Shown here piece by piece: positions 20,369 through 64,000 of a DNA stretch of 64,000 bases; position 1 is the stretch's first letter; each line of letters begins with the position of its first letter. The translations under genes and the position numbers were made by a program. The notes beneath the pieces are model-generated. The model was not told where the DNA came from, ran no database searches, and was given only the letters and a program-made list of their open reading frames with translations. Source of the stretch: an uncultured virus (IMG/VR IMGVR_UViG_2061766007_000921) (Duplodnaviria > Heunggongvirae > Uroviricota > Caudoviricetes); the IMG/VR virus record IMGVR_UViG_2061766007_000921; one strand, given 5' to 3'.

Positions 20369-23300
20369 TTATTGTATATAATAAGCTAAGTTATCAATTG
20401 CTGGACCTGATCCAACATATACAGTTTCTGTAAGAAGATCTTTAAGCATTGCAGTTTCAGTTCCTCCAACAATTCCATATACTGGAACAATATCATGAAT
20501 TAAATTATTTGATTTATCATATATCTTCAATTCATAGAATGCAGGTCTATACTCAGGAATGTATTCATCTATACTTGTTGCATATGGAGTAGCTACATGA
20601 TATGATGTGAATATTCTAGTAGGCAAGTTAGCAGTCTTTTCATTGTCAATTGACCAATCAAGCAATGTTGCTTGTGAACCAGACTCTTCACCATATTTTA
20701 CAGCAGTTACTTTATTATTTGCAGTATGACAAATATCTACAATAATTCTTTCACCGTGATAAGGAGCTATAAGAGCAGATGGAGTATTTGTTGCATCAAG
20801 AGCTTCAAACCATGTTGCTACTCCTTGTTCTCCGTCTTTAACAGATGTTGCTTCTCCTAAACGATACAAGAATCTATTAGTTGCAAATCCAGGGTTGGTA
20901 CCATTTCCTGCACCGAATATGCTGTAGTCAATTACTCCTGTAATGTTTTCATCTGTCATTCCGTCAGATGATATTGCACCACCAAATATAGGAACAATTC
21001 CATAAGGAGATGCATTAAATACTCTCATATCTAATACATATCTGTAATTAGCTTTAAGGAATACGTCATTCAATTCGAAGCATCCATAAGTGCCAGATCC
21101 AGAGAATGTTACATATTTCAATCTCTTAGTTTCTGCAGTTTGTGAATACTCAGGAGTTGTTGCAAATCCACCCCAGCTGTAAGGTACATTATCATAGTTC
21201 TTAGCATTACCGCATCCACTGAATGTCTTTTGAGCATTCTTAATAGGATGAGCAAAACTACAACCATAGAATGTCTTCCATAATCCAGGCAATTCTGATA
21301 TAAGTGAAGTACATCCATAGAACATGTTCTTCAATGATGTTATTTCAACATCTTCATCAGGGAACAAGAATTGTACATCTTCTTCAGAACCTATTGATGA
21401 AAGCATCAAGCAATTTGCAAATGTTTCAGTAAAGCTAGCAGCTTTAGTGTTATTTACAAAGAATGATGAAGGAATAGTAGTAATATTCGAATTCTTAAAT
21501 GTCTTGTTGAATGATGTCAAGTTAACACAATTCTCAAACATTGGAGTATTAGGAATCTGCTCTATAGTTGAGTTTTCAAACAATGAATCAGCACTTGTGC
21601 AATTTACGCAATTCTTGTAAATGTTACCTACACAAAGAATCTTTGAGAAGTTCTTATTTGCAAAATTGAATCTTGGCATTGTGCTAAATACAGCTGCTCC
21701 TGATGATTGATATGCAACCAATCCGCCTCTTGTAGTAGAAACAAATGAATCACTGAATCCTTGTCCTGTTCCTGTACCGAAGCAAGGTTTCATTTCAGTT
21801 CCTGCTTCAGGTATTACATGGAACCAGCGGATGTTTTGAGTATTTGATGAATATTCTACACCATTGATTCTTTGAGTTTCATTGGTAATAGTAATTTCAT
21901 ACTCTTTTTCATTTGTCTTATAAGTATGGTAGATTGTCATTTCAACACCATCTGAACTTGCTACTGCATCAAGATGTGCATTTGAAGTTTGTTCATCTGC
22001 ATCACCCCAATCAATTATAATAGGACCAACTGTCTTGTAGTAAAGTCTTACTGTAGTATAGTTATTTTGTCCTGTTACAACAGTCATGTGAAGTTCTGTA
22101 TTGTCATACAATGCAACATTTCCTAAGTAATCTCTAGAAATTGCAATTGTATACTCAAATGGAGTAGCACCAGAACCTGTAGTAATAGTTCCAGAATATT
22201 GACTATATCTACCTCCAGTCAATACTTTGTTGTATGAATCATCCAATTCTGTAATTGTGATTTCATGTGTAGTATTAGCAAGAAGCTTGATAGTTGCAGG
22301 GTTTCCATCAGTTCCAACTACTACATTGTTATATTCACCATTAGTAAGGCTTCGTATAACTTCATTTTGGAATGAGTAAATTGCAAGATTTCTGTCAGTT
22401 ACATTTGCACCACTGTTGATTACTCTAATGTTTGCAGTAATAGGAACAAAGAATGTAAATGTTCTTTCAATATCAGTTGCAACTGTAGCAGGAAGTTCTT
22501 CCATGATAATAGGAGCAGGCTGATTGTACTTATTAGCCATTTCAGTTTGAGCGTGTGCTTCAATCTTAATCTTCTTAAGTCCAAAGTAACCTTTACCTGC
22601 TTCCGACTCATCTGGAGCATATTTGTTAGTTACAAGAGTAATAACACCTGCATTATCACTTGCAGTATATACGTAGTAGTCATTGCTATCACCATCAACA
22701 TTAATCTTAACATATCCAGGAAGTCTTACTCCGTTTTCATCTTGTAAGTAAATTACTCTAGATACAATGTTATTAACGTGGATAGGAATAGTTCTGTAAA
22801 TAGAAGGAAGATTATGAGATGCAACTTTGATAGCAGAATTTTCTCTCTTAGATACTTCTGCTGCAGTTATTGTAAGTTGTTTGGTCTGATCTGAATACTC
22901 ATAGTAGTTAAGTCCATAAGGTCTCAGATATTGACCATTAGTTACAGTAATATCAACTGCATCATCAGCAGTTCCTTCAGGTAAGAATGCTACAGTAAAT
23001 GTTGCAGAATCACCTTCATAGATTTCAACACCAGCATTGTAATCAATTTCATTTCCTGTTGAGTCAAAAATCTTGATTGATTCAAGAGTTGCAGTAGGAC
23101 GAACTGACAATGTATGTTTCTTAGTTGAATCTTTGATAGAAGTTGCAGAAATTTCATAGTAGTTCTGACCAGTAGTAGAACCTTGATATGAAACTTCAAC
23201 TGATTCAGCTGTAATATTTCTTGTTTGAAGAGGAAGACCAATATTCCAGGTTACTCCCTTATCTTCAGGAAGAACGAAGTCATCAGGTAAATAAGAAACT

Positions 23301-26300
23301 TTATAAGTGTACCACTGATTAGGAGCAATTGTTTCATTTCCTGAAATTACAATTCCACTTAATCCAGTAGTATGTGCAACATTTATTGTAAGGTTGCAAC
23401 CTTGTTCACGGAATTTAGCTTCAAGTCCACTCTTATAACCGTTAGATACTACAAGTCCAGGACCAATAGATACAGTACCTTCAAGATAAGGAAGAACTAA
23501 TGAATAAGTTCCATCATCTGCGATACCTCTCATAGAAAGAATCTTGTTCCAGATTTCATAGTCTCTTTGAGTTTGGATACTCCAGTTAATTCCATTAATA
23601 CGCAATCTTGAAACTTTGTTATTAGCAGTGTTCAAAATATTGTAAAGCAACAACCAAGTATTGATGTTAGGACAATCTTCAATCCATACAGTTGAAAGAT
23701 TTGAATAGTTGACAAATGATATATTGTTGTTTGTCAAGTAATTCATCTTAACAAGTTTAACCATTGCAATTGCTGCAGGATATGCTACTCTCTTAAGGTT
23801 TGCACCTTCTGTTGAGAAGTCAATATCAGTAAGAGCAGTATCAGTTGCAAGAACAGTTTCAATTGAAGTAATCTGTGAAATACCATTGAGAAGTCTAAGT
23901 TTTCTACATCCACGAACATCAATATTCTTCAATGAAGTGTTAGTAGCACCAACTGTCAAGTTTTCAAGGTTTTCATTGTAGTAAGGTGATGCTGCACCAA
24001 GCAACAAATCAGTAATCTTACTTGCATTACCAATTGCAATTGAATCTGCGTATTTGTCTGCCATTTGTCCAAATGAAAGAATATATGGAGCACCGTAAAT
24101 AATAGTTTCAGTATTATTAAATCTTGAATCAAATCCAATAGGTGCTACTACATAAGGTTTATTCTTTTCTGCACGAACGTAAGCATCAATTGATCCAAAT
24201 CTTACGCGTAAGTACATATCAGCATAAGGAGTAATGGTAAAATCAGGATTAGGCTCAATAGATGACCAGTTAGCAGGAGTATAAAGACGCATTGTAGCAT
24301 ATGAATCTTTATATGTACTACCAACATTGTATCTTGAGTCCATATAGATAAATCTGTTAGTTAACCACCATTTTCTATGTTCTGCACGTGAACCTTGGCA
24401 CTCATAAAGATAACCACCTTCTTGGATAGTTACTCCATTAATACCGTTTTGGTCTTTCTGTGAGAAATCAATATAACCTACAGTTGCAGGATCAATATAT
24501 TTGAATTTAGCATCAAGGTTATAAAGTACCTCAGGCCACAAATCAGATTGTGTTTCATTGAAGTATTTGATACATGTAGGATAGTCAAGTCCGTGTGCAC
24601 GCATGTTAGAATAAACATTTGTAATTTCAGGACCATAAGAATCCTTGAAGTTCAGCCAAAGTACTGATTCTGTACCGTTGTATGCATAACCTGTACCAAC
24701 TTTATCTGTTGATTCTACATTAGGTTCATAACGGATATAACCAGTATTGTTCAATGACATGATAGTATCATTATCATAGAATATAGGATAGTAAATATAT
24801 TCTGCATCAATAGGTACCCAATAAAGAGGAATCTTTACAGTTCCTGTAGTTGGTGTTGAACCGCCACCGTCATCAATTGGAGTAGGAATTGAACCGTTGT
24901 TTGATTCTCCAATAGAAGGAGTGTTGAAACGACAAACTGTAGTAAATCCATCTTTAACACGTCCAATTGAAACTGTATTAGTAGAATCAACTACTGGATT
25001 CTCATAATTACTCATGTGGTCAATTACAAGAGATTGGTCAATAGTTTGAGCACCAGTTGCAGTAGCAAGTGAACCGATATTTCTCATCAAGTAAATATCA
25101 AAGTCTTTGCCAGCTTTAAATGAAATACCAAAGTCAGGACCAGGTGTTACATCTTGGCACTTAAATACTACAAATCCCTTAGAAGGAATGCTGTTTCCAG
25201 CAGGAATTTGCCATGCATCTGAACGACCATCTCCTTCAGGAAGAAGTCCTTCATTATAACCAGAATCTTGTGGAGATTTAAGCAACCACAATCCGCTAAT
25301 ATCTACTGTTGCATTTGTAGGATTGTAAAGCTCAATCTGACGATATGCAATTTCATTAATTACAACATGATCTGTAATTTCAGTACCCGGATCAATGTCT
25401 TCAGGAACATAGCCTGAATTATCCATACTGACTTTAAACAGATTCTTATAATTATTTACCATTGCAGCAGGATCTGTAATATCGTCATCGCAGCATACCC
25501 AGAATACATTTGCAGATTTATCTACAAGAAGTCCTTCAGGATTAGATTCAGTAATGTTGAGCATGAATTTTTCAACAAAAGTTCCAGTTAATCCGTTTGC
25601 AGAAATAGAAACTTTTGATATGCTCTTTTCTTCACTATTAAGTGCCCAAACATTTTCACCATCATAAGCAACATCTGCTACTTCAGCGATGTATTGAGTA
25701 AGATCTGCAAATTCAGTAAGTGAAGTTGCTACAGATGGAGTAGCGCCCGTTAAATCTGCAAGATAAATCTTACCAGTAACTTGTTTTCCAACAAAGAACA
25801 AATTATCTTTATAGTAGCAGAATCCTTCCATAGATTCAATTACATCAAGTTTTGCTACAATTTCAAGTCTATTTCCATTCAACTTATAAACGTAAGCATA
25901 AACATCAGCGGTATCAAGATCTTTCTTCTTTGTCTTCTGAACACCTTTACTCATGATAGGTGCATTTGCTACACCATTAGTAGTAGGTTCAAATGTTTCT
26001 TCACCAGTAACATTATCAGTATATACAGGATACTTGTCTGTAGACTTAATATTAAGCTGTCTGTATTCACTCATAATGTAGATATTTCCATTATTGTCTT
26101 TAGTAATAGCTTCTAAGTCAGTATTAGGAACAATATCAGGAACATTATCAGTAACATCTTCAAAGACTTTTTCTCCATTATTTCCAATTGCTTGCATCCA
26201 AGTCTTTCCTGTAGTAGATGATACACCAAGGAATCTTACATCAGGATCATAATTTTCTATAGTTCTTGCTGTAACTTCTCCGGTAAGAGTAATATCATAA

Positions 26301-29300
26301 ATAACACCTGTATCAGATACAGCAATAAATCCTGTATTAGTATTATTGTATATCAATCCTGAAAGTTCATTACCACGACATGTGTATTTTGTTATATCCA
26401 TGAGTTCAGTAATATCATACTTAGGAGTCATATCTGTAGTATTATCCAATCCTGGAGTACCTGTATCAAATATTCTCCATGATAATGCACCATCAAATAT
26501 TCTTCCATAAGAACGATATTCAGTATGATCTGCAGAACTACCTTCAAGATTCATATATTCTCTATCTACAACATATACAGTATTACCTGTAGTAACATCA
26601 GTTCCCTCAATATAAGTTCCTGTTGCGGGAGCTTCAGCATAAGCAATCTTAGGTGAATTATCAAGTTCATCTACAAGATTGTTATTGTTGTCATAAAGTC
26701 TTAATACAAATCCAGCTTTAGGTCCAAGACCTCCTGGCATAGTATTAGGAGTAACACCGTCATTGAATACAACTACAAAATATCCATGAGCAGGAACGAT
26801 TGCATTGTTGTCAAATGTTACACTCTTGCTATTTACAGGATCATCTACACTGTTAAGCTGTTTTGACTTAGGATTTCCATTCTTGTCAACTTCACCAGTC
26901 AAATAGTAGAATGAATCACATCCAACATCACCTTTTCTTAATGTCCAACCTTCAAGATTTATAGCAGCATTTGTTGGATTATAAAGCTCTACACCTTTCT
27001 GTGTTGGATAATCAAGTGACAATGCATTAGGTGATACTTCATTGATACACAAGTGATTGATAACTTCATTTGTATATCCAATTGAAGGAACTGCAAATTC
27101 TACCCAAGTTTCTCCACCGTCAGTTTGGCGTCCCCATGAACCAGGGAATCCATTTGTTCCATCAGTGTAAAGATTATTAGTAATAGTGTCAATAACATTT
27201 CCATTATTATCCTCAAGAGTGAAAGTCCAAGCTTTGCTTCCTGACAAACCGTAAGTAGGTCCCTTTGTTCCATCACCACCGTCTTTAGCCTTAATAAACT
27301 CAAGAACAGTATATCCCTTTGCAGGAATTGTAGTGCCGCCAACAAATGAGCTTGTTACTGTCCAATCTGTTCTAGGTGCGCCAGCCTCATCTATACCCTT
27401 GATAGTATAACCAGTAATATCAATAGGAGAATTAGTTGTATTGTAAAGCTCCATCTTCTTACCACCAGGATAAATCTCATTTATGCAAACAGTTGAAGGT
27501 GCAGCTCCAAGAATTCTTGGCGCAGAGAACAATCTATTAGCATAAGGATTAGTGGCTGAATTAATAGCAGCAATCTCATATTTGTAAACACCTTTATATC
27601 CTGCAGCATTTGCTTCCTCTTCTGTTGAGAATGCAGTTGCAGGTTTTACGCGTGATGCGCCAGGTTCATAACCCCAAGATGCAAACATCATATTCTTAGC
27701 TCTCTGGTCAACACAAGCAAAGAATTCTGACAATACATAATACGCAGTTGTCATATCAATGTTCATGTGATTAGGCAATTCATATTTGAATTTTGCTAAT
27801 CTATATTCAGCAGTATCATAATTGTATATTATAGTATTATAAGTTGCTGCTGCAGGAAGTTTATAATTTGCATCAAGAGTTGCTGCTAATACCCAAGTTG
27901 AAGTTGCAGTATCAAATTTATAAACGTTCTTATACTCAGGCTCAGTATCTTTATTGATATAATACCATTTTGTATAATCAATATCTCCAGTATCTTGTTC
28001 ATATTTCTTGTCAACATACCAAGAATTAGTTTCATTGTTGTATCTTGCAATGTATCCAAAATATAAATATGAATCGTCTGGACCATATTCACCTGTTCCC
28101 TCATCAACTATTACAAGAGGTTCAAGAATATATCCCTTGCTATAGTCAAAATTAGTAACAAGGTCATTATTCATTTCTTCAAGAGTTCCGTTATAAGTGT
28201 TGAATGTTTCAACATCTGCGTCTCCTGAATTAAGTTTAAGCAATGTATCATTCCATGCAGTAGGAACTTTGTAATTCATAGAAGCATCAACATAACCATC
28301 TCTATCAGTACTTGATACCCATTTCATAAATTCTTTCCAGTGCATAGGATTCTTACCGTCCTCAAGATCTGCTGCATAATTATCATTATCAGGATGTCTT
28401 GCTTCAAATGAACCTAACCATTCCATTCCGTATTCCTCTGAAGGATTGCTGAATGTTTGGTCAGTTACATATTTGAATTTAGAAATAGAAGCAGAGTTGT
28501 TTGTGAATTCCCAGCATTCTACTGGAGGTTCATAAAGCAATCTATCTTCTTTAGAAGCAGCATCATAATAATCTTCATCGAATTCCAAGAATGGCATTCC
28601 AGTTTGAGGATTAATCATGTCAGTAATATCAACAAATCCGAAGAGTCCTTCTTCACCTTTATCATAGTTGAAGTTGTACTTACCAAGGAATGAATATTCA
28701 TCTTCATAAGTTTTTCTCCAGAAGATTGCAGTAGGATAACCATCAACAGTAGTACGAATATTTACTTTATTCATTGTTCCTACTGAATCAAATTGTGATT
28801 TCTGAGGAGGTGTTAAGAAGTTTCTTCCAAGAGACTTAAGAATATAATCAGCATATTTAGCAAGTCCGGTGTTGTGGGTACTTGATGCCTCAGCAAAGTC
28901 TGCTTTCATACAGAATTTCTTACCAGCCAATGAAGTGATAGTATCTACTGATGTATTCTCCATATCACTTGCTGAGTAATCCTTAAGTTTATATTTAGCA
29001 GTATAACTATCTTTATAAGTAATTGCCTCTGCTAAACGATTGTTCTTACCTGCTTCAGAAGCTCCTTCACCAGTTTGTCCAACATTAGAACCAGTAGTGT
29101 TCAAGAACAACATAGTAGGTTTTCTAGATCCAAGAAGTGCATTGTAATTTGCTAAAGTAAGATCTTTTCCGTCAAGAAGTTTCTTCTGAGGTTTGAATGT
29201 AAGTTTATAGTTTTTACGAGGATAATACTGTGAAGAAGTACCCTGAACTGTCATCTGTGCATTGTATGCTACGAATGAACGAACGAATGGATAATTTTCT

Positions 29301-32128
29301 CTTGCTTCTTCATCAAGCTGTTCACAGTTATAAATTACTGTATATCCTCTCTTATCTTTCTTTCCAGTAGGAAGAATATGTTCAAGGTTTGCAAATCCTG
29401 TAGTAGTATCAGTAACATCGCATTCACAAGTTACGAACATACAAGGCATCTTGCTAAGTAATTTACCGTAATCAATATCAGTACCTGAAGTAGTAAGGAT
29501 ATTGTTTCTCAAGTACAATCTAAGACGTTCTGAAGGATCTTGTGTATCTGCTACATAGTTTCCAACAAGTGCTCTATCATAAAGAGCTTTCTTATATGAA
29601 CGAATACTATAAATATCTACAGTTGCTTTATCTGAACCAATTGTAATAAATGCAGGTTCTCCCTGAACGAATGCCTGGTTGCTAATATAATTCTGTACTG
29701 ATGTGCAAATACCGTTAATGTAAACCTTAACAAATCTCCACCATCCTTCACTTACAGATTCTTTAGTAATATAAGCTTTTGCTTCAGGATCCCAGATGCT
29801 TACATTGTGAGTTGATTTACCAGAATCATCTGAATTAAGAGGAGTAATTACGAATGAAATTCTTACTCTTTCATTTTCCTTGAAAGGAACTTTAATACGT
29901 GAATCTGCTGAATCAGACAATGAGAACTGAGTTGAAGTAAAGTATGCACAGTTAGCAGTAATTTCAATACCTGTATTAGTAGTATTATCCATGCAAGAAA
30001 TTACTGTAGTAGTTGAATCTGACAAGTTACTTGTTGAGAAGTCAAACTCAATTACCTGACCAGTTGTACGGTAGTCATTATCGAATGGTGCATAAGGAAT
30101 AACACATTTTGCTCCACCTGCTACTCTGAGTGAAGTAACATTACCGTTTACATTCCAACCAGAGTTTGCATTCCAAGCAAAACCTGTAAGAGATGCGTTA
30201 TAATTTCCAATTTCTGAATGCCAAACTTCTCTTACTTCTGGAGATTCATCATTTGATCTATTCTTTGCAGTAAAGAACATATCTGAACCTTCTTCTGCTT
30301 CAAGTGAATATGCAGCTTTTGCTACATTGAATACATATTCAGTAGATCTAATTGTTGAACTTCCATTATTATATTCTACATCAATATACAATGAATATTT
30401 TCCAAAGCTATCAAATGTATATGTCCAAACTTTTTTACCAGTTCCAGATGACAATGTATTAACAACTCTTTCTATATTATTGTTAAGATCTTTTACAATA
30501 AGTTTAATTGTAGAAGATGGATAAACTTGATAATTAATTGCTACATATTCATATTGTACTGATGAATATTCATTATCACTATCAGGAACTTCTGTTGTTG
30601 AAGTTGCAATGATAGGAGTACTATCACTAGCATTGTACCAAATAACTTCAATCTTGATAGTATCAGTATTAATTAATGTATCTGATTCTACAATGTAAGT
30701 AGTTGCCCAAATAGAAATATGATGTACACCATGTTCTCTTGGATCTCCATTGCTCTTAACAGGTTGAATTGTAATTACATTAGTACCAGATCCAGTAGGA
30801 AGTGTATAAGCTTCTACTGCATCTTCATCATCTATTGTATAATATACTTTGGCTTCACCAGATGCTGCAACAGTAACAGGAATTTCAAGTGATTTTGTAA
30901 GTTGAGTAGGAGTAGATACGTATGAAGTTGCAATTGATACAGAAATCATAGATATCTTTACTTGCTCTTCTGCAGAATTTCCTGAAATATCAGTAGCAAC
31001 AATTTTAATTGTATGTTCTGAACCGTTCAGTCTTCCTGCAGGAACAGTATAAGAATTATAAACATTCTTACTGTCATTTTCATCATCATAAGAAGCTTGT
31101 CTTATTGAACCTGAATCAAACTGTACACCATCAATAAAATACTTAACTGTACCAATTTTACCAGTTTGTTGGTATACTTTTTCAAATTGTCCAGTCTTTT
31201 TATTAAATGAGGTATAAGTATTTGCTGATGAAAATGCAAATTCAATTGTATATGAATTTCCTTTTGCTACAGATGCTGTTGTTTTACCACCTTTAATATA
31301 AATAGCGCTTTCAACTTTTACATCAGATGAACCGCCACCACCACCACCTGCTCCTGAAATAGGAACATATGTTCTGTCGTCGAGACCTTCAAACTCTCTT
31401 GCCCAACGATACATTGTATTTGTATCATCTTCAATGTAAAGTTTGTTTTCATCTCCAATTTCTGGGAATTCTGCTGAAGAGTCTTTAGTAATTACATTGT
31501 CTACATAATTATCAATATACTCTTTGTCATAATACTGTGACATAACAGCATCAATTCCTTGTGCTGCTTCCAGCAATTGTTCCATTTTTTCATCATCGCT
31601 AAAGATTTCTGCTAAAGCTCTGATGTTTTCTAATTCTGAACCTGCTACATATCTTTCATCACTTTGTGCAGTTGTAAGATAATTTGTACTTACATCTTGT
31701 CTCAAAGTATTAACCATTGTACTTGCATCATTTCTAACAAGTGAAATTATAACATCAATGTTCTTTTCACCGCTAGTTCCTACATGTACAAATGTGTCAT
31801 CAGCATATTCAATAATTGAATCTCTTTGATCATTAATCTCTCTGAAGTAATCGCTGTAGATGTTCTTCACAATTTGCTCTAAGGTATCACCTTCATTTAC
31901 ACGACCAATTGTAGTTAGCTCATCTCCATTAGAGATAGTAACAGAAAATGATCTGTTGAAAATAATGTCTGAAGCCTTGATTGAGCCCATTGGAATATCA
32001 CCTTTATACAATGTGCCATATCCTGATGAATCGATAACGAAGTATACCATATCAGGATTCTTAACAGCTAAAGCATTGTAAGCATCAGGAGTACCAAAGC
32101 CATAATCAACACGTTTTTTCTTAGCCAT
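20369..32128 (-). CDS. Giant 3919-aa multidomain, probably virion/tail protein (CotH-kinase-like core, lamin-tail domains, beta-propeller, LRR/Ig-like regions)
   Basis: Uninterrupted ORF; QGTSSQYYPRKNYK, DQRAKNMM, FYDNDT; three INE...ELYN repeats. Confidence 0.7.
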   Translation of the reverse strand: MAKKKRVDYGFGTPDAYNALAVKNPDMVYFVIDSSGYGTLYKGDIPMGSIKASDIIFNRSFSVTISNGDELTTIGRVNEGDTLEQIVKNIYSDYFREINDQRDSIIEYADDTFVHVGTSGEKNIDVIISLVRNDASTMVNTLRQDVSTNYLTTAQSDERYVAGSELENIRALAEIFSDDEKMEQLLEAAQGIDAVMSQYYDKEYIDNYVDNVITKDSSAEFPEIGDENKLYIEDDTNTMYRWAREFEGLDDRTYVPISGAGGGGGGSSDVKVESAIYIKGGKTTASVAKGNSYTIEFAFSSANTYTSFNKKTGQFEKVYQQTGKIGTVKYFIDGVQFDSGSIRQASYDDENDSKNVYNSYTVPAGRLNGSEHTIKIVATDISGNSAEEQVKISMISVSIATSYVSTPTQLTKSLEIPVTVAASGEAKVYYTIDDEDAVEAYTLPTGSGTNVITIQPVKSNGDPREHGVHHISIWATTYIVESDTLINTDTIKIEVIWYNASDSTPIIATSTTEVPDSDNEYSSVQYEYVAINYQVYPSSTIKLIVKDLNNNIERVVNTLSSGTGKKVWTYTFDSFGKYSLYIDVEYNNGSSTIRSTEYVFNVAKAAYSLEAEEGSDMFFTAKNRSNDESPEVREVWHSEIGNYNASLTGFAWNANSGWNVNGNVTSLRVAGGAKCVIPYAPFDNDYRTTGQVIEFDFSTSNLSDSTTTVISCMDNTTNTGIEITANCAYFTSTQFSLSDSADSRIKVPFKENERVRISFVITPLNSDDSGKSTHNVSIWDPEAKAYITKESVSEGWWRFVKVYINGICTSVQNYISNQAFVQGEPAFITIGSDKATVDIYSIRSYKKALYDRALVGNYVADTQDPSERLRLYLRNNILTTSGTDIDYGKLLSKMPCMFVTCECDVTDTTTGFANLEHILPTGKKDKRGYTVIYNCEQLDEEARENYPFVRSFVAYNAQMTVQGTSSQYYPRKNYKLTFKPQKKLLDGKDLTLANYNALLGSRKPTMLFLNTTGSNVGQTGEGASEAGKNNRLAEAITYKDSYTAKYKLKDYSASDMENTSVDTITSLAGKKFCMKADFAEASSTHNTGLAKYADYILKSLGRNFLTPPQKSQFDSVGTMNKVNIRTTVDGYPTAIFWRKTYEDEYSFLGKYNFNYDKGEEGLFGFVDITDMINPQTGMPFLEFDEDYYDAASKEDRLLYEPPVECWEFTNNSASISKFKYVTDQTFSNPSEEYGMEWLGSFEARHPDNDNYAADLEDGKNPMHWKEFMKWVSSTDRDGYVDASMNYKVPTAWNDTLLKLNSGDADVETFNTYNGTLEEMNNDLVTNFDYSKGYILEPLVIVDEGTGEYGPDDSYLYFGYIARYNNETNSWYVDKKYEQDTGDIDYTKWYYINKDTEPEYKNVYKFDTATSTWVLAATLDANYKLPAAATYNTIIYNYDTAEYRLAKFKYELPNHMNIDMTTAYYVLSEFFACVDQRAKNMMFASWGYEPGASRVKPATAFSTEEEANAAGYKGVYKYEIAAINSATNPYANRLFSAPRILGAAPSTVCINEIYPGGKKMELYNTTNSPIDITGYTIKGIDEAGAPRTDWTVTSSFVGGTTIPAKGYTVLEFIKAKDGGDGTKGPTYGLSGSKAWTFTLEDNNGNVIDTITNNLYTDGTNGFPGSWGRQTDGGETWVEFAVPSIGYTNEVINHLCINEVSPNALSLDYPTQKGVELYNPTNAAINLEGWTLRKGDVGCDSFYYLTGEVDKNGNPKSKQLNSVDDPVNSKSVTFDNNAIVPAHGYFVVVFNDGVTPNTMPGGLGPKAGFVLRLYDNNNNLVDELDNSPKIAYAEAPATGTYIEGTDVTTGNTVYVVDREYMNLEGSSADHTEYRSYGRIFDGALSWRIFDTGTPGLDNTTDMTPKYDITELMDITKYTCRGNELSGLIYNNTNTGFIAVSDTGVIYDITLTGEVTARTIENYDPDVRFLGVSSTTGKTWMQAIGNNGEKVFEDVTDNVPDIVPNTDLEAITKDNNGNIYIMSEYRQLNIKSTDKYPVYTDNVTGEETFEPTTNGVANAPIMSKGVQKTKKKDLDTADVYAYVYKLNGNRLEIVAKLDVIESMEGFCYYKDNLFFVGKQVTGKIYLADLTGATPSVATSLTEFADLTQYIAEVADVAYDGENVWALNSEEKSISKVSISANGLTGTFVEKFMLNITESNPEGLLVDKSANVFWVCCDDDITDPAAMVNNYKNLFKVSMDNSGYVPEDIDPGTEITDHVVINEIAYRQIELYNPTNATVDISGLWLLKSPQDSGYNEGLLPEGDGRSDAWQIPAGNSIPSKGFVVFKCQDVTPGPDFGISFKAGKDFDIYLMRNIGSLATATGAQTIDQSLVIDHMSNYENPVVDSTNTVSIGRVKDGFTTVCRFNTPSIGESNNGSIPTPIDDGGGSTPTTGTVKIPLYWVPIDAEYIYYPIFYDNDTIMSLNNTGYIRYEPNVESTDKVGTGYAYNGTESVLWLNFKDSYGPEITNVYSNMRAHGLDYPTCIKYFNETQSDLWPEVLYNLDAKFKYIDPATVGYIDFSQKDQNGINGVTIQEGGYLYECQGSRAEHRKWWLTNRFIYMDSRYNVGSTYKDSYATMRLYTPANWSSIEPNPDFTITPYADMYLRVRFGSIDAYVRAEKNKPYVVAPIGFDSRFNNTETIIYGAPYILSFGQMADKYADSIAIGNASKITDLLLGAASPYYNENLENLTVGATNTSLKNIDVRGCRKLRLLNGISQITSIETVLATDTALTDIDFSTEGANLKRVAYPAAIAMVKLVKMNYLTNNNISFVNYSNLSTVWIEDCPNINTWLLLYNILNTANNKVSRLRINGINWSIQTQRDYEIWNKILSMRGIADDGTYSLVLPYLEGTVSIGPGLVVSNGYKSGLEAKFREQGCNLTINVAHTTGLSGIVISGNETIAPNQWYTYKVSYLPDDFVLPEDKGVTWNIGLPLQTRNITAESVEVSYQGSTTGQNYYEISATSIKDSTKKHTLSVRPTATLESIKIFDSTGNEIDYNAGVEIYEGDSATFTVAFLPEGTADDAVDITVTNGQYLRPYGLNYYEYSDQTKQLTITAAEVSKRENSAIKVASHNLPSIYRTIPIHVNNIVSRVIYLQDENGVRLPGYVKINVDGDSNDYYVYTASDNAGVITLVTNKYAPDESEAGKGYFGLKKIKIEAHAQTEMANKYNQPAPIIMEELPATVATDIERTFTFFVPITANIRVINSGANVTDRNLAIYSFQNEVIRSLTNGEYNNVVVGTDGNPATIKLLANTTHEITITELDDSYNKVLTGGRYSQYSGTITTGSGATPFEYTIAISRDYLGNVALYDNTELHMTVVTGQNNYTTVRLYYKTVGPIIIDWGDADEQTSNAHLDAVASSDGVEMTIYHTYKTNEKEYEITITNETQRINGVEYSSNTQNIRWFHVIPEAGTEMKPCFGTGTGQGFSDSFVSTTRGGLVAYQSSGAAVFSTMPRFNFANKNFSKILCVGNIYKNCVNCTSADSLFENSTIEQIPNTPMFENCVNLTSFNKTFKNSNITTIPSSFFVNNTKAASFTETFANCLMLSSIGSEEDVQFLFPDEDVEITSLKNMFYGCTSLISELPGLWKTFYGCSFAHPIKNAQKTFSGCGNAKNYDNVPYSWGGFATTPEYSQTAETKRLKYVTFSGSGTYGCFELNDVFLKANYRYVLDMRVFNASPYGIVPIFGGAISSDGMTDENITGVIDYSIFGAGNGTNPGFATNRFLYRLGEATSVKDGEQGVATWFEALDATNTPSALIAPYHGERIIVDICHTANNKVTAVKYGEESGSQATLLDWSIDNEKTANLPTRIFTSYHVATPYATSIDEYIPEYRPAFYELKIYDKSNNLIHDIVPVYGIVGGTETAMLKDLLTETVYVGSGPAIDNLAYYIQ

Positions 32129-45028: not shown

Positions 45029-46690
45029 TTAAATGACCACCTTGGTTATTTCATCTATGACAGATGAAGCATTGAACTCGTTTGCAGAAATAGTGTCATA
45101 CAAAGTAGGACCATATCCGAACATGTAGAATACCTTACCGTCATTCTTCAATGGAGTAGTTCCATAAGAAGCAAGGTCAATTCCGTATACGTAAGGGCTG
45201 CAAACATCGTGAACATAAGTCTTGTATGCAGAACTAGTCAAACGACCGTTTACCTCATTGTCAGAAATAAACACGATTCTGTCATACTTCTTCTTGTCAC
45301 GAGTGATCAAGTTGAATGCTGCTGCAGGGTTAGTTCCACCGAACTCATCAGTACCAATCTTGTCAGCAAGAGAGAACACGTTCTCATTCTTGTTGTAAGT
45401 AAAGTAAGATGCGCTAGTACCGAACTTTACAATATCTGCATTGCATGACTTTGCAATAGTTGCAGCAATCAAACCTGCCTTGTAAGAACACTGACGGTGA
45501 CGTGTCTCATACCAGCTTCTAGACTGCTTGTAGTCAGGACGAGTATTGTAGAATACACCAGATCCCATAGAACCTGAGCAGTCTACAATAATGCAAGTCT
45601 TGCCGGTAAAGATGCTTCCAAGGTTTGGAATAGACTTTGTGTAACCGTCAATAAGAGCCTGCATTACTGAATTTGCGTAATCCATATTAGAAAACTCATC
45701 CTTGATGACATCATGTGCAACATCAAAGTATACAGGAAGAATAAGAGCCTGACGGATCTTCTTCTCATCTGTAATAAGCTTGATCCACATATCAATGGTT
45801 TCCTTACGAGGATTCTGCATGATATTACGGATATTTCTCAATGCAGCAAGCATACCAAGACGTCCATCCTTAAGAAGAGACTCCCAGTTATCTGCCTTAG
45901 CCTCAGCAAGAACCTTTTCAGCTTCTGCCTTAGAAAGCTTACCAGCACGAACCGCCTTAGCAACCTCCTGGCCAGCTTCTGACTGTGCAGACTCCCAAGT
46001 ATCTGCAGTGATAGTGATACCCTTCATAAGAGCATCAAGAGTCTTCATCTTCTTACCGTCTACAGTAATCTCTGAAACAGAGAGAGCAGACTTAGGGTGA
46101 GCAAGATTTGCAATGTCAATGACACTCTTGCTGTACTTACCAATAAGATAAGTATCCATCTTCTCGATTGCAGATGCAAATCCCTTCTTCATTGCATTTG
46201 ACATAGGAGACTTAGTAAGAGTGCAATATGCATCCTTGATCTCAGTCATGTCATCTGGACGAAAAATACATCCACCTCTCTTCATCTTCTTGTCAAAAAG
46301 ACCATAGAATCTCTTTGCATAATCCTTACCTGCAATGAAAGGTGCTACAATAGCAGCTGCAAGATGGTTAATGGTACGCATACCCTCACCGATGCAACGA
46401 GACCATACAATAGCCTGACATACAAAATAAGGATCATCAACTGCGATCTTTTCAATAAGATCACGAAGATCTCTCATAGTTTCATTCTCAGAACGATAAA
46501 ACTGAGGCTCAATCTTTAAAGTGTTGAGCATAGAAACAAGACGAAGCTTATCATTGATAGAATAAGCCGCATGACCCTGACGGTTAACAGTATCTTCCTT
46601 AGGAATGGTGTTAACCTCAATTACTCGCTCCTTGGTTGCAAGGCCGCCGAGTGCGCTCTTAAGCTGAGCGTTTCTTTCCTTCATCTTCAT
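45029..46690 (-). CDS. rsr: TROVE-domain Ro60/Rsr RNA-binding protein
   Basis: VNRQGHAAY, GMRT, RPDD, TWE, ALRNIRN, vWA DCSGSM...GGT...ISDNE. Confidence 0.9.
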   Translation of the reverse strand: MKMKERNAQLKSALGGLATKERVIEVNTIPKEDTVNRQGHAAYSINDKLRLVSMLNTLKIEPQFYRSENETMRDLRDLIEKIAVDDPYFVCQAIVWSRCIGEGMRTINHLAAAIVAPFIAGKDYAKRFYGLFDKKMKRGGCIFRPDDMTEIKDAYCTLTKSPMSNAMKKGFASAIEKMDTYLIGKYSKSVIDIANLAHPKSALSVSEITVDGKKMKTLDALMKGITITADTWESAQSEAGQEVAKAVRAGKLSKAEAEKVLAEAKADNWESLLKDGRLGMLAALRNIRNIMQNPRKETIDMWIKLITDEKKIRQALILPVYFDVAHDVIKDEFSNMDYANSVMQALIDGYTKSIPNLGSIFTGKTCIIVDCSGSMGSGVFYNTRPDYKQSRSWYETRHRQCSYKAGLIAATIAKSCNADIVKFGTSASYFTYNKNENVFSLADKIGTDEFGGTNPAAAFNLITRDKKKYDRIVFISDNEVNGRLTSSAYKTYVHDVCSPYVYGIDLASYGTTPLKNDGKVFYMFGYGPTLYDTISANEFNASSVIDEITKVVI

Positions 46691-46750: not shown

Positions 46751-46781
46751 CAAATATAATAATTTTATTTTAACCTGCAAA
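46751..46781 (-). promoter_or_regulatory. Bacteroidota-type promoter for rsr
   Basis: TTTG-N19-TATATTTG. Confidence 0.8.
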
Positions 46782-47503: not shown

Positions 47504-47578
47504 TCGGGTAGAGCGGACTCGAACCACCATTATCGTGCCTCCTATGCACGCAACCTCAGCCAATTGGTTTACTACCCG
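47504..47578 (-). tRNA. tRNA-Pro(AGG), atypical
   Basis: CGTGC-ATAGGAG-GCACG; Pro-like acceptor. Confidence 0.7.
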
Positions 47579-48438
47579 ATATTATCATATAAATTATTAT
47601 AAAAATATCTACCATACTTGTCAATGACATATTTAAGATATGGTTGTATTTTTGTTCTATCTATAAATTCTACATTATCAACTTGTTCTAATTTTGCTTT
47701 ATTTTTTGGAGTGTAAAACCCTTTTATTTCTACAAGTTTACCATCTACTATAAAATCTGGATAAAACTTGCATATTTCATTTTCAAACGTATATTCAATA
47801 TAATCTTTATTTCTTTCTATTGAAATATTATGTTCTAAACAATATATTACATATGCTAATTCCCATGAACTATCACACCAAATGCCTTTATAATATCCTC
47901 TTTTATAATTTGTATGTGTAGTTTCAGGATTTAAACCTCCAAAATTATTGCATTTAGCCAATTCAGATAATTTTATATGTTTTGTTTTGTCTGAACATTC
48001 TCTAGAACAATATATAGAAGATTTATAATCTTTATATGTATAGTCTTTTCCACAACAAGTACAAGTTAATATCTTTAACTTTTTATAAGGATGCTTAATA
48101 TTCTTGCCAATCAAAGATATTGATTGTTTTTCTCTTAACTTTTTTATATCAGAATTTTTTAAAGTTAATCTATTAGAGCATAATCTTGAACAACATCTTT
48201 TATATTTTCCTGTTTCTAATTGTCTATCTGAAACAACAATTGTATAAGATGATCCACATACTTCACAAATTAAAGTTCTTTCTTTTACACCTGCATTTTT
48301 TGTTCTTCCTGATGATCTTTTTTTATTGAGTTCATCATATTTAGGATTTTTCTTACAAGTTAAATAATGTGAACCTAATTGTCTACCTTCTTCAAATTCT
48401 TGACCACAATATTTACATATATGTTTTTTCTCTTCCAC
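47572..48438 (-). CDS. Putative homing endonuclease (Zn fingers plus PD-(D/E)xK)
   Basis: CxxC repeats, DSSWE, FYPDF, VEIKG; inserted in the tRNA array. Confidence 0.7.
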   Translation of the reverse strand: MEEKKHICKYCGQEFEEGRQLGSHYLTCKKNPKYDELNKKRSSGRTKNAGVKERTLICEVCGSSYTIVVSDRQLETGKYKRCCSRLCSNRLTLKNSDIKKLREKQSISLIGKNIKHPYKKLKILTCTCCGKDYTYKDYKSSIYCSRECSDKTKHIKLSELAKCNNFGGLNPETTHTNYKRGYYKGIWCDSSWELAYVIYCLEHNISIERNKDYIEYTFENEICKFYPDFIVDGKLVEIKGFYTPKNKAKLEQVDNVEFIDRTKIQPYLKYVIDKYGRYFYNNLYDNIG

Positions 48439-52574: not shown

Positions 52575-52678
52575 ATAAAGTGGAGGACCCATACCGTCAC
52601 GGCGGTATCCTCCAATAAAGTTTACAGATTCCAACATGTCAAAGAACCTGAGATTTAAGAATAAATCTAAAATCTTCG

Positions 52679-52753
52679 CGGGGATAGAGGGACTCGAACC
52701 CACAACCATCGGCTTAACAGGCCGCCGCTCTCAACCATTAAAGCTATATCCCC
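52679..52753 (-). tRNA. tRNA-Asn(GTT)
   Basis: Cloverleaf. Confidence 0.9.
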
Positions 52754-52787: not shown

Positions 52788-52818
52788 CAAATATAAACAA
52801 AGTTTTTGAATCTGCAAA
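52788..52818 (-). promoter_or_regulatory. Bacteroidota-type promoter
   Basis: TTTG-N19-TATATTTG. Confidence 0.8.
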
Positions 52819-57813: not shown

Positions 57814-58737
57814 TTATTCAAATATTATATCTAATGAGTCATCAATAGTTTTTGTAGTTTTCAAATATTCTATAAATTCTTTAAATTTTTCTCTTACAAA
57901 TTCTGGTTTATACTTTCCATCATCTCTAATTATATATGGAATATATCCTGTTTTTATTATTTCATTTATCTTTATATTATCTCTATTTTGTACTTGTTCA
58001 ACTGAATGATTTTCTTTTATCTTTTTATAATGCCAAGGTCCATTCCATAATATAGCAATTTTAAAATCATGTATAATAACATCTGCATCCCAATTGTTAA
58101 ACATAGGAATATTATGTTCTACTGATTTAAAATTCTTTTCACACAATTCACAAAAATATATTTCATTTTTTGATCTTCTACTATCTCCTTGTGATAATAT
58201 TGCTTTTCTTCCTCCTTCAGAAATCTTTTCTAAAGCGTCTTTAGACAAAAATTCATTTCTGTGTGCTTTGTAATATTGATAACATTTATCACTACAACAT
58301 ATTTTGCTTTTTGATAAGCGTGTAGTATATTCTGAATTACAAACTACACATTTATGAATTTTTAAATGTTTTTCTGCTTCCTTTGACGAAGATTCTCTTA
58401 TTTTTTGTAAAGTTTCTTCAGAATGAACTCTTGAATTTGCACATGCTCTAGAACAATATTTTCTATATTTTCCCTTTTCATATTCTTTGTCAGTCAATGA
58501 TAATGAAAATTCTTTACCGCATTTTGGACAAATGAACACTCTATCTTTTCTTGTTAATTCATCTAATTCCTTTTCTTTTCTTTTTCTATCTGCTATAATT
58601 TTGCATGTTCTTATTGCATTTTGCTTTAAATATTCTCTATTTTCAAATTCAGCACAAGGATTTAATGAACAAAACTTTATATGATTAGAAAGTCCATGTT
58701 CATTAAATTCTTTACCACAATACTTGCATATAGGCAT
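57814..58737 (-). CDS. Putative homing endonuclease (Zn fingers plus Vsr-like domain)
   Basis: CxxC repeats, CSRACANSR, SKNE, WDAD, WNGPWH. Confidence 0.7.
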   Translation of the reverse strand: MPICKYCGKEFNEHGLSNHIKFCSLNPCAEFENREYLKQNAIRTCKIIADRKRKEKELDELTRKDRVFICPKCGKEFSLSLTDKEYEKGKYRKYCSRACANSRVHSEETLQKIRESSSKEAEKHLKIHKCVVCNSEYTTRLSKSKICCSDKCYQYYKAHRNEFLSKDALEKISEGGRKAILSQGDSRRSKNEIYFCELCEKNFKSVEHNIPMFNNWDADVIIHDFKIAILWNGPWHYKKIKENHSVEQVQNRDNIKINEIIKTGYIPYIIRDDGKYKPEFVREKFKEFIEYLKTTKTIDDSLDIIFE

Positions 58738-59768: not shown

Positions 59769-59920
59769 AACAAAAGAGAAATCAGCGAAATCTGTGTTTT
59801 CAGTTTACAAATTACAAGTTTGTTGCTTTACCACTAAGCTAATCGTTCAAAATTAATGGCGAACAATGATGGAGTCGAACCATCGAAATCGAAGTAAGAT
59901 TTTGCTTGGCTACTTTTGTT
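59769..59920 (-). ncRNA. Y-RNA-like 9 (module at the variable loop of a permuted Thr(TGT)-like tRNA)
   Basis: TAGCCAA..TTACTTCG, T arm, ATTGTTC-GCCA, linker, GAACGAT, D arm, anticodon arm, TTTCTC. Confidence 0.75.
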
Positions 59921-62291: not shown

Positions 62292-62888
62292 TCAATTTTT
62301 TGTATGATAAAATTCTCTCCAATTACTAAATGTTTTATCAACTGCGAGTGTTTTCAAATATTCAATATCATATTTGTCTGTTGTGTGTATTACTCTGTGA
62401 CAATTTGGACAAACAATTATTAAATTGTCAGCATCATTAGTTCCTCCTTTACTTTTTGGAACAATATGATGAATGTCACAAGAACTTTCATTCCAACCAC
62501 AAATTGAGCAAGAACATTTTGCTCTATACAATATTTTTGATACTGTCCTTGATGACAAGTCTAACAAAGATTGTACCTCTTCTTTAACATGCACTCTTTG
62601 TAATTTACAATCATTACAATGAATGTGTCTTCCTTTCTTTATTTGGCTCTTTCTTACAAATTCTTTTCCACATTTTTCACAAGTATAATGATATTCTTGA
62701 TTTTCGTAATAAACTTTAATGCCATTACGTATTTTATCAAGCCGCTCCTGTGTCATTGGTCTAGAATTTGCACAGCTCAAAGAACAACAATGTTTGTATC
62801 TTCCAGCTTTCCAATCAGCATCTGAACATGTTACTTCATATTCTTTTCCACATCTTTTACAAATACATATATGTGTTTGCTTTTCCAT
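62292..62888 (-). CDS. HNH endonuclease
   Basis: CSICG, DIHHIVP..KGGTN...NL..VCPNCH. Confidence 0.85.
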   Translation of the reverse strand: MEKQTHICICKRCGKEYEVTCSDADWKAGRYKHCCSLSCANSRPMTQERLDKIRNGIKVYYENQEYHYTCEKCGKEFVRKSQIKKGRHIHCNDCKLQRVHVKEEVQSLLDLSSRTVSKILYRAKCSCSICGWNESSCDIHHIVPKSKGGTNDADNLIIVCPNCHRVIHTTDKYDIEYLKTLAVDKTFSNWREFYHTKN

Positions 62889-62979
62889 AAAAAAATATAA
62901 ATTTATTTTTATATTTATTCTCAAAGCCTTATAAAAAATTCACTTTTTCTACAGTCACTCGCGATTTCAAAGAACTTAG

Positions 62980-63078: not shown

Positions 63079-63151
63079 TGCGTCCGTCGAGATTCGAACT
63101 CGAGACCCCAGCATTAAAAGTGCCGTGCTCTACCAGCTGAGCTACGAACGC
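63079..63151 (-). tRNA. tRNA-Lys(TTT)
   Basis: Cloverleaf. Confidence 0.92.
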
Positions 63152-63173
63152 ATAATTTCAAAGAACTTAATTT

Positions 63174-63253
63174 TGGTACATAGGTGGGACTCGAACCCAC
63201 GTGAGATGATCAAACTCGAACCTGACATAAGCGTGCACAAACTTCCTATGTAC
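63174..63253 (-). ncRNA. tRNA-like RNA with acceptor stem and two T loops, no anticodon arm
   Basis: GTACATAG/CTATGTAC-CA; GGTTCGAGT occurs twice. Confidence 0.6.
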
Positions 63254-63257
63254 TTTG

Positions 63258-63331
63258 TCGGGCGCCCCAGATTCGAACTGGAATTACATCGGTATCAGCG
63301 ATGCGTCCTCAACCTATTAGACGAGCCCCCG
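63258..63331 (-). tRNA. tRNA-Ile(GAT) with Glu-like D arm
   Basis: CATCG-CTGATAC-CGATG. Confidence 0.8.
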
Positions 63332-63367
63332 AATATTTAAAGAACTATTGTTTCTTGTTTTACATTG

Positions 63368-63398
63368 CAAATATAAAAACTTTTTTTCTACCTGCAAA
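63368..63398 (-). promoter_or_regulatory. Bacteroidota-type promoter
   Basis: TTTG-N19-TATATTTG. Confidence 0.8.
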
Positions 63399-63599
63399 AT
63401 TTATTTTAAAAATTTTATAAAATTGTTTTCTTTCCATTCATACAAGCAATATAATACAATATCTGAGTCTCTGTAAGATTATTAAACCATTCATCAAAAT
63501 ATTTGTAATACTTCTTAATTGTATTATAAGTAAATTCTTTATACAAATAATCTCTTAAATTTTGCCCCGCTTTCCATAATTATAAGTTTTTAATTGTTG

Positions 63600-63672
63600 T
63601 ACCCCCTAGAGGACTCGAACCCCTGCTGAAGCATCCGTAGTGCTTTGTGCTATCCAATTACACCAAGAGGGC
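63600..63672 (-). tRNA. tRNA-Arg(ACG)
   Basis: Cloverleaf. Confidence 0.9.
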
Positions 63673-63687
63673 AATTATATTAAAATT

Positions 63688-63770
63688 AAAACCTCCTTAT
63701 TCTTGTTGTTGAATGAGGAGGTTTTTGTATCTTTATATCTTGTTATCTTATACACATCTTCTCATTCAAC
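63688..63770 (-). promoter_or_regulatory. Attenuator 2: terminator 63688-63724 and antiterminator strand 63761-63770
   Basis: GTTGAATGAG is the perfect complement of CTCATTCAAC in the terminator 5' arm; U-tract follows. Confidence 0.8.
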
Positions 63771-63849
63771 TTTGTACACAGAGTTTTAAGCGATAATAAA
63801 TCGCTGCTGATTTAATAATGTTAATGGAATATGTGTTTCTTGTTATCAT
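63766..63849 (-). CDS. Leader peptide 2 (27 aa)
   Basis: MITRNTYSINIIKSAAIYYRLKLCVQS; stop lies inside the antiterminator. Confidence 0.72.
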   Translation of the reverse strand: MITRNTYSINIIKSAAIYYRLKLCVQS

Positions 63850-63867
63850 AATTATAAATTTTATATG

Positions 63868-63898
63868 CAAATATACAAAAAGATTTTTATCTTGCAAA
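63868..63898 (-). promoter_or_regulatory. Bacteroidota-type promoter driving leader peptide 2
   Basis: TTTG-N19-TATATTTG, 18 nt before the ATG. Confidence 0.8.
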
Positions 63899-63934
63899 TT
63901 ATTTATTAAAATTCTGTGAGAAATTTCTCACATT

Positions 63935-64000
63935 TTACAGTTGAACATCTTCTATATCAACACTGGTTGTAATAGTCTTAATTTTTGCTGCTGCAATATT
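63935..64000 (-). CDS. C-terminal fragment of an upstream gene
   Basis: ...NIAAAKIKTITTSVDIEDVQL*. Confidence 0.45.
   Translation of the reverse strand, partial: NIAAAKIKTITTSVDIEDVQL

Follow-up and report, generated by a model that had tools for sequence, protein, structure and literature searches.

The general model of attenuation by a translated leader peptide is set out in PMC1183508, and the trp, his, leu, thr, ilv and phe leader attenuators have in common a short open reading frame (ORF) behind a promoter, a stop codon at which the ribosome masks an antiterminator strand, 1:2, 2:3 and 3:4 pairings that exclude one another, and an intrinsic terminator directly ahead of the gene under control. 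Leader-peptide attenuation has also been proposed in the Bacteroidetes (PMC9723704; PMC7366714). For the decoding apparatus, to which transfer RNAs (tRNAs) belong, the nearest precedent in the sources cited here is the E. coli pheST operon, where a component of the decoding machinery is under leader-dependent control, termed "tRNA(Phe)-dependent attenuation" (Springer 1985 and Mechulam 1987, as cited in PMC4082710). In this study, a unit with the same parts is described from positions 63898–63682 of a 64,000-nucleotide (nt) stretch of DNA, hereafter the window, belonging to an uncultured Caudoviricetes virus (IMG/VR record IMGVR_UViG_2061766007_000921). On balance, and with reserve, we favor the reading that this unit acts as a ribosome-dependent transcription attenuator at the head of a phage tRNA island.

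Large phages carry dozens of tRNA genes, and the control of their expression is, to our knowledge, largely unknown. A full-text literature search returned no description of an attenuator acting on tRNA genes, whether phage or cellular, with most subscription journals and the older T4/T5 tRNA-region papers lying outside its scope. The phage studied here is a rumen jumbo phage whose source is bovine gut metagenomes, and the relatives used for comparison are phage contigs of 100–410 kb that were recovered via a Ro/TROVE-like protein. In the Logan contigs, at least 14 sequencing runs contain relatives.

Organization of the Leader Unit

The minus strand carries all the genes of the window, and with them the promoter, 27-codon ORF, terminator and first tRNA, which are present in the order given by a first-pass annotation made from the sequence alone. 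The promoter occupies 63898–63868, with a -33 element TTTG at 63898–63895 and a -7 element TATATTTG at 63875–63868, matching the motif TTTG-N17-21-TAnnTTTG, which we take to be the Bacteroidota promoter consensus; transcription of the leader probably starts here. The leader ORF (63849–63766) opens with an ATG at 63849, 19 nt past the -7 box, and has 27 sense codons followed by a TGA at 63768–63766, encoding MITRNTYSINIIKSAAIYYRLKLCVQS. The sequence before its ATG is A/T-rich and without a Shine-Dalgarno motif, as is the case for the real genes of this phage. A recount of the codons agrees with the counts given previously, among them five Ile, three Tyr, three Ser, two AAA and one each of CGC, TTA and CTC.

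Four segments can be recognized within the transcript. Segment 1 (63836–63823, codons 5–9) pairs with 63766–63752 in the minimum free energy (MFE) fold of the full-length leader and is modeled as an anti-antiterminator. Segment 2 (63770–63752) comprises the antiterminator strand proper, 63770–63761, within which the TGA lies, and the bases 63766–63752 that pair with segment 1. Behind it come a spacer (63751–63726) that varies between strains and the predicted intrinsic terminator (63725–63682), consisting of a stem-loop at 63725–63688 with 15 pairs, an 8-nt loop and an energy of -16.1 kcal/mol alone, and a U-rich tail reaching 63682. Segment 3 (63717–63708), the partner of the antiterminator strand, lies inside this stem-loop. 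The ORF also contains a 6-base-pair (bp) hairpin at 63805–63789 that spans its GCG and CGC codons and possibly serves as a pause hairpin. The first gene past the terminator, 16 nt behind the stem-loop, is tRNA-Arg(ACG) (63672–63599, called by ARAGORN), and no promoter motif is found between the two.

Alternative Pairing and Folding

The first-pass annotation had claimed perfect pairing between the TGA-bearing 10-nt strand and the 5' arm of the terminator. The pairing of 63770–63761 with 63717–63708 is indeed perfect, but the partner is made up of 7 nt of the 5' arm and 3 nt of the loop rather than the whole arm. When the 141 nt upstream were dinucleotide-shuffled 5000 times, a complement of this length turned up once, and the duplex energy of -12.0 compares with -5.2 ± 1.6 in shuffles, none of 1000 reaching it. 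Judged against these shuffles, the complementarity is not a product of chance. The whole leader fold has a z score of -4.6 relative to 200 shuffles.

Folding of the growing transcript predicts the order of states that the trp/his-type geometry proposed earlier would entail. At first a 1:2 hairpin joins 63836–63823 with 63766–63752 (-17.4 kcal/mol); once the 5' arm and loop of the terminator have been made, the 2:3 antiterminator takes over (-24.0 kcal/mol) and is the MFE structure of the transcript ending at 63703; and when the 3' arm has been made, the 1:2 hairpin and the terminator stand together (-33.8 kcal/mol). As modeled, these 1:2, 2:3 and 3:4 states are the four-segment logic of classical attenuators.

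Under the attenuator reading, host RNA polymerase would start at the 63898 promoter and transcribe the 27-codon leader. A ribosome reaching the TGA would cover 63770–63761, the footprint of a terminating ribosome being of a size to take in this strand, so that the terminator at 63725–63688 would form and transcription would stop 16 nt before tRNA-Arg(ACG). Were the ribosome slowed earlier, 63770–63761 would be left free whilst the competing segment 1 would be occupied by the ribosome; the free strand would then pair with 63717–63708, no terminator would form, and polymerase would read on through tRNA-Arg, adding to the transcription of the tRNAs behind it. This scheme presumes translation of the leader, termination at the hairpin, a host in which transcription is coupled to translation, and slow decoding as the signal.

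Neither the pairing statistics nor the growing-transcript folds need translation, and the same parts could form a terminator/antiterminator switch in which the short ORFs are incidental and the setting is made by a phage or host RNA-binding protein, by a tRNA or small RNA, by polymerase speed, or by a phage antitermination factor acting temporally, from early to later expression. The layout of promoter, short unit, terminator and genes is that of phage early terminators overcome by antitermination. Such a switch is in our view unlikely. No Rfam family, T-box included, matches the leader, either in a scan of 63673–63898 at E up to 1 or at gathering score over the whole window, and the same holds for the related leader L060 described below. 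In addition, the placement of the window ORF is uncommon: when the window leader was shuffled 20000 times, an ATG ORF that had 25 codons or more and stopped at the antiterminator strand came up 701 times.

Variation Between Strains

Strain contigs over 63200–64000 were examined from three DNA runs (X3, X4 and X7) and one RNA-library run (X15), stretches without coverage in the mapped runs being counted as no evidence. In all four haplotypes, rebuilt by coordinate, the 27-codon frame, both pairing strands and the three folds are kept. The leader ORF of X3 differs at four sites, giving I11T, C24Y and two synonymous changes, and in X4 and X15 the leader and hairpin are unchanged, the unit differing solely in the spacer between terminator and tRNA. 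The X7 contig (109 nt) carries 11 substitutions and four deletions, all of them in 63752–63725 or in codons 25–26. Seven of the substitutions and all four deletions fall in the spacer 63751–63726 and two more substitutions on its bordering bases, 63752 and 63725, with no change in 63724–63695 or 63771–63753. Segment 2 is invariant in the four haplotypes except for its terminal base 63752 in X7, and the second U run of the terminator tail is longer in strain variants.

This pattern fits a constraint on the pairing elements, at a low level of divergence. The conservation of the elements while the spacers vary also speaks against a chance constellation, and the absence of any indel inside the leader frame in the four haplotypes, set against the four spacer deletions, is not what a switch with an incidental ORF would lead one to expect. 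The X15 sequence is an assembled contig of 398 nt at a depth of 3.6 (63830–63435) that bridges leader, terminator and tRNA-Arg, and it may represent read-through RNA or DNA carry-over; because carry-over is possible, it lends little support.

Related Units and Hairpin Controls

Hairpins followed by a T-run were collected at up to 30 nt upstream of 424 tRNAs in 1.18 Mb of relatives (18 distinct hairpins) and at 31–150 nt upstream of 257 tRNA heads (9 hairpins), which together with 8 hairpins in G004–G008 gives 35 tested. An outstanding upstream complement (at most 3/1000) was seen in two of the 18 close hairpins, those before the window tRNA-Arg and before tRNA-Thr of L060, whereas among the remainder one scored 33/1000 and 15 scored 219–845/1000. 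Scores in G004–G008 were 125–942/1000, and eight of the nine distant hairpins scored 122–314/500. Overall, the complement is missing in 31 of the 35 hairpins and present in three (window, L060 and G002), with one marginal case in the window. The marginal hairpin (52580–52613, minus strand; -17.0 kcal/mol) lies 6 nt before tRNA-Leu(CAA) and is the one that scored 33/1000; its 5' arm resembles the first bases of that tRNA, and its 3' arm could pair with either. Hairpins before tRNAs without the switch geometry were seen in L044, L045, L048, L059, L064, L104, L107 and L109, and L029 was set aside as its ORF runs through the hairpin.

In L060, a 30-codon ORF (MAQFKNTYSNSFNTNTTSYYLDVPMEDGEK) comes after a tRNA-Met, with a hairpin and its U run behind the ORF; a further 19 nt lead to tRNA-Thr(TGT), which is succeeded by tRNA-Asn(GTT), tRNA-Lys(TTT) and later tRNA-Ser(GCT). 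Its antiterminator strand of 11 bp lies in codons 25–29, the stop beginning 6 nt behind the strand, and pairs with the 5' flank and arm of the hairpin with a duplex energy of -18.1 kcal/mol that was reached by 0 of 2000 and 3 of 1000 shuffles in two shuffle runs. A global alignment of the window and L060 leaders outscores those of 1999 of 2000 shuffles (z = 3.8), and in the RNAalifold consensus the antiterminator helix takes up the same columns in the two, one of its pairs being compensatory. The anti-antiterminator pairing, by contrast, is present in the window and in G002, whereas L060 is without a 1:2 competitor. A GOLLD RNA (RF02032)-like match sits just upstream of the tRNA-Met/leader/tRNA cluster of L060 (L060:740–1137; E 1.2e-11 and 50.9 bits, short of the gathering score, which is 150); in phages, GOLLD RNAs are known to occur in the vicinity of tRNAs.

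In G002, a tRNA-Met is followed by a 39-codon ORF, a strong terminator hairpin, 83 nt and tRNA-Glu. A 10-bp complement to the terminator lies in the last codons of the ORF, with the stop beginning 10 nt past the strand; its duplex energy was reached by 10 of 500 and 83 of 3000 shuffles in two runs, and the growing-transcript folds switch in the same order as those of the window. G002 (the same as L110) is a 410-kb phage contig filed in the genome collection under a bacterial metagenome-assembled genome, where it was probably binned together with a bacterium. From these comparisons, L060 appears to carry a detectably similar, diverged homologue of the window leader, and G002 an analogous instance. 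The frame, stop position and pairing, for which the first-pass annotation had looked to related phages, are kept in the four strain haplotypes and in the diverged L060, although this sample is small and no copy was found in the other relatives.

The recurrence of the unit bears on the possibility that its parts came together by chance in intergenic DNA rich in A and T. Short ORFs are common in the window (an ATG is followed by 26 sense codons with a P of about 0.07), and the whole 64 kb had been scanned for patterns when the unit was first noticed. The leader peptides of the window and L060 share NTYS-x9-YY at equal spacing and little beyond, and this motif, together with an A-rich 9-mer common to both leaders, was dropped as proof of homology, such a 9-mer being expected by chance in A-rich sequence by our estimate. 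However, the complement (1/5000) and the placement of the ORF (3.5%) are jointly improbable, the arrangement recurs in L060 and G002, and the hairpin controls are clean, so that an origin by chance is very improbable.

The three leaders also bear on whether the ORFs matter at all. That the peptides have so little in common would suit a switch operating without translation, but all three leaders are filled by an ATG ORF of 27–39 codons that ends at the strand or at most 10 nt past it. ORFs that reach 25 codons or more and stop at the strand arise in 730 of 20000 shuffles for L060 (3.7%) and in 576 of 20000 for G002 (2.9%), so that each of the three occurs in about 3% of shuffles.

Another explanation is that the leader is an independent small unit, either a gene for a 27-amino-acid (aa) protein or a small RNA of about 170 nt, with tRNA-Arg transcribed by leak-through and no regulation involved; its hairpin may also stabilize or mark RNA ends after RNase P cutting. 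Terminators do bracket the unit on both sides. The upstream protein gene ends with a stop codon at 63937–63935 and is followed by a 7-bp terminator-like hairpin at 63932–63915, the two together isolating the leader unit from upstream transcription. Strong hairpins right before tRNAs are gene terminators elsewhere in relatives, for example behind the TROVE gene of L026, L027, L059 and L035, and the window and L060 peptides have motifs in common at equal spacing. This explanation is nevertheless quite unlikely. It leaves unexplained the upstream complement, which is missing in 31 other hairpins and marginal in one, and whereas the tRNAs at 52753, 53125 and 63331 each have a promoter motif to themselves, tRNA-Arg lacks one. 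Moreover, the C-terminal halves of the window and L060 peptides are completely different, and no protein homologue was found on record. A protein search with the 43-aa TTG-extended frame gave no candidate, a result of little weight since gene callers rarely call such short frames.

Codon Content of the Leaders

The first-pass annotation held that the leader is written in codons matching the block of tRNA genes that it precedes (block A). For this block, ARAGORN at default settings (63672–58798) recovers Arg, two Ile, three Lys, Tyr, Leu(AAG), one Ser(TGA) and Met as listed previously, but not the Leu(TAA), the second Ser(TGA) or the two Tyr-like genes; what Rfam and relaxed ARAGORN add is limited to weak tRNA-like calls. 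Anticodons of block A read 14 of the 27 leader codons. The other 13, which had gone unmentioned, are ATA, ACA (twice), AGA, AAC (twice), TCC, GCA, GCG, TGT, GTA, CAA and AGT. A set of 296 short ORFs with an ATG start, taken from the window, has a mean share of codons read of 0.41, and 15.5% of the set reach 14/27, so that the match in the window alone is not unusual and was rejected as an argument.

A null based on random anticodon sets (P = 0.003 and 0.005) was dropped because it is confounded by A/T richness, and was replaced by dinucleotide shuffles of each leader, in which codons read by the next n downstream tRNAs were counted. For the next four tRNAs, there are 10 matching codons in the window leader against 6.1 expected (P = 0.050), 12 against 6.3 in L060 (P = 0.002) and 8 against 4.8 in G002 (P = 0.078, in ARAGORN order). 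Combined over the three leaders by Fisher's method this gives 0.0007, and for the next two to seven tRNAs 0.0002–0.009. When the tRNA sets are swapped between the window and L060, matches drop from 22/55 to 12/55. The other two reading frames give 6 and 6 matches in the window, 5 and 4 in L060, and 1 and 5 in G002, for which the tRNA set was mis-specified. The idea of a codon match therefore receives moderate support, short of proof, from the three leaders pooled under a composition-controlled null, whilst for the window taken alone the match to block A is not significant.

For a switch that is indifferent to translation, the weak match of the window alone is what would be expected, but the frame-specific enrichment is not. 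The further claim, that the leaders sense decoding in a codon-matched way, each being written by preference in codons read by the tRNAs behind it, we regard as possible but doubtful on these counts. The codons concerned would be those for Ile, Lys, Tyr and Arg in the window, Thr, Asn, Lys and Ser in L060, and Glu, Ser and others in G002. In such a tuned version of the attenuator, the phage would gauge the decoding of exactly those codons and raise the matching replacement tRNAs on demand, which would be useful when the host pool is poor or has been cut by anticodon nucleases. Phage tRNAs have recently been connected with escape from defenses that cut tRNAs (PMC11555353), and a link of the leader to anticodon-nuclease defense, whilst compatible with the attenuator reading, is speculation.

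Evidence Weighing Against an Attenuator

A number of observations weigh against the attenuator reading, beginning with the fact that all evidence for it is sequence-based. Most of block A is served by the promoters at 63398 and 61183, independently of the leader, so that the block is not one operon, and this contradicts the earlier suggestion that the leader gates the whole block 63672–58799. Since tRNA-Arg(ACG) and a 43-codon ORF (63546–63415) are alone between the terminator and the 63398 promoter, read-through could only add to the output of the 63398 and 61183 promoters.

The codon evidence has weaknesses of its own. The first tRNA alone gives a combined Fisher P of 0.14, the enrichment in the window leader is marginal by itself (P of about 0.05–0.13), and this leader has a single Arg codon, CGC, and no tandem run of one amino acid. 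The cut-off at the next n tRNAs was chosen after the data had been seen, and the tRNA order used for G002 assumes wrap-around of the contig.

The related units are also imperfect. The full-length MFE structure of L060 retains the antiterminator, so that its terminator may seldom act. In G002 the complement alone is not significant after 35 tests, and a sigma-70-like hexamer pair was seen by eye within the 83-nt gap between terminator and tRNA. Hairpins directly before tRNAs also occur without any leader, so that such hairpins can have other roles. There are only three instances in about 1.8 Mb of relatives, among roughly 480–520 tRNA genes; BLAST and nhmmer searches of all the relatives' DNA found no third sequence homologue of the leader (the best other nhmmer hits having E values of 1.4–8.5), and relatives at 54–65% identity in the TROVE protein have no recognizable copy. 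Exact-pattern scans of IMG/VR with a tRNA-Arg 33-mer, a terminator 30-mer and a three-motif gapped pattern returned 0 hits each, an exact scan of metagenome contigs with the tRNA-Arg 33-mer returned 0 hits, and GenBank phages matched at the tRNA level only.

Setting of the tRNA Island

The tRNA island takes up the last 19 kb of the window (63672–44607) and contains 41 tRNAs called by ARAGORN, with small ORFs and HNH endonuclease genes scattered through it. Three HNH endonuclease-like genes (phrog_1271 and others) lie among the tRNA genes at 62292–62924, 57814–58737 and 47572–48438 on the minus strand, and the tRNA arrays of relatives are heavily rearranged. The promoter motif has 12 matches in the window compared with 4.0 ± 2.1 in shuffles, eight of them on the minus strand of the tRNA region (46781, 52818, 53193, 53881, 56529, 61183, 63398 and 63898). 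Those at 52818, 53193 and 63398 reach a tRNA after about 35 unstructured nt (tRNAs at 52753, 53125 and 63331). The next promoter of the same type after that of the leader (63398–63368) serves tRNA-Ile(GAT) with nothing but a 36-nt leader, devoid of structure, in between. It is preceded by the 43-codon ORF mentioned above, in which strain differences, by our own reading of the contigs, are a mixture of synonymous and non-synonymous changes. The cassette holding this promoter (63357–63416 and other copies) is a dispersed repeat at which contig depth spikes in all four mapped runs, and many contigs with unrelated flanks share it.

Two other promoters of the island lead into hairpins. From 61183, an 8-codon mini-ORF (MKKIKQKR, with four Lys) is followed by a 9-bp hairpin (-11.3 kcal/mol, z = -2.1, no U tract) and two tRNA-Lys(TTT) genes (61183–61061, minus strand), and no upstream complement to the arm of this hairpin was seen by inspection. 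From 56529, a 13-bp A/U-rich hairpin (z = -3.4; 56529–56381, minus strand) abuts a suppressor-type tRNA with the anticodon CTA. Both leaders were set aside, their hairpins being without a U tract and with no complement visible. Reading TAG as Gln leaves most long ORFs of the window unchanged. In a relative, G001, there is a tRNA-like gene with a 4-base anticodon call (ttca), as well as suppressor-type tRNAs with the anticodons TTA and CTA (L001:9147–9223, belonging to G001; G001:141349–141421; G001:169864–169938).

The protein by which the relatives were recovered is a 553-aa product encoded at 45029–46690 (minus strand) that matches phrog_850, "RNA-binding protein", and is read by us as Ro/TROVE-like; its gene has its own promoter at 46781. 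Proteins of this kind, at 43–86% identity, occur in more than 60 contigs of the searched collections, many of them listed as bovine gut, and in these contigs the gene invariably adjoins tRNA arrays. Weak matches to the Y-RNA-like YrlA family (22–23 bits) are present in the tRNA island at 59825–59886 and 63127–63201. A search for relatives through a neighboring 276-aa gene found none. Elsewhere in the window, 20369–32128 (minus strand) is one ORF of 3919 aa, with ORFs of 1537 and 746 aa nearby.

Comparison With Known Systems

Whilst the unit shares its plan with the trp/his-type attenuators, it differs from them in several ways. It would control tRNA genes, whereas theirs are genes for biosynthetic enzymes; the window leader contains a mix of codons (Ile, Tyr, Lys, Asn, Thr, Ser and others) in place of a tandem regulatory run; the related L060 leader lacks the 1:2 competitor; and the host of the window phage is probably a member of the Bacteroidota, where such attenuators have so far been proposed rather than established. 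The pheST operon, in turn, is cellular, controls a synthetase and senses a single amino acid, whereas the product of the phage unit would be the tRNAs themselves, so that direct feedback on their own decoding would be possible.

T-box riboswitches are likewise terminator/antiterminator leaders that report the state of the tRNA pool. In these, tRNA is bound by the leader itself, which carries a specifier loop and the conserved T-box sequence, whereas the phage switch is overlapped by an ORF. The lambda N/nut system and the HK022 put RNA resemble the unit in having a phage promoter, a short early unit and a terminator to be overcome, yet there the polymerase is modified and no strand complementary to the terminator arm is needed, while the complement is the outstanding feature in the window.

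If the attenuator reading is true, a switch read by ribosomes and placed before tRNA genes would put classical attenuation to a new use, in which the product, tRNA, would directly determine the decoding speed that is sensed. This would allow a homeostatic or on-demand supply of tRNA without a protein regulator. It would also provide a compact, testable part for the Bacteroidota, a group in which leader-peptide attenuation is at present no more than suspected.

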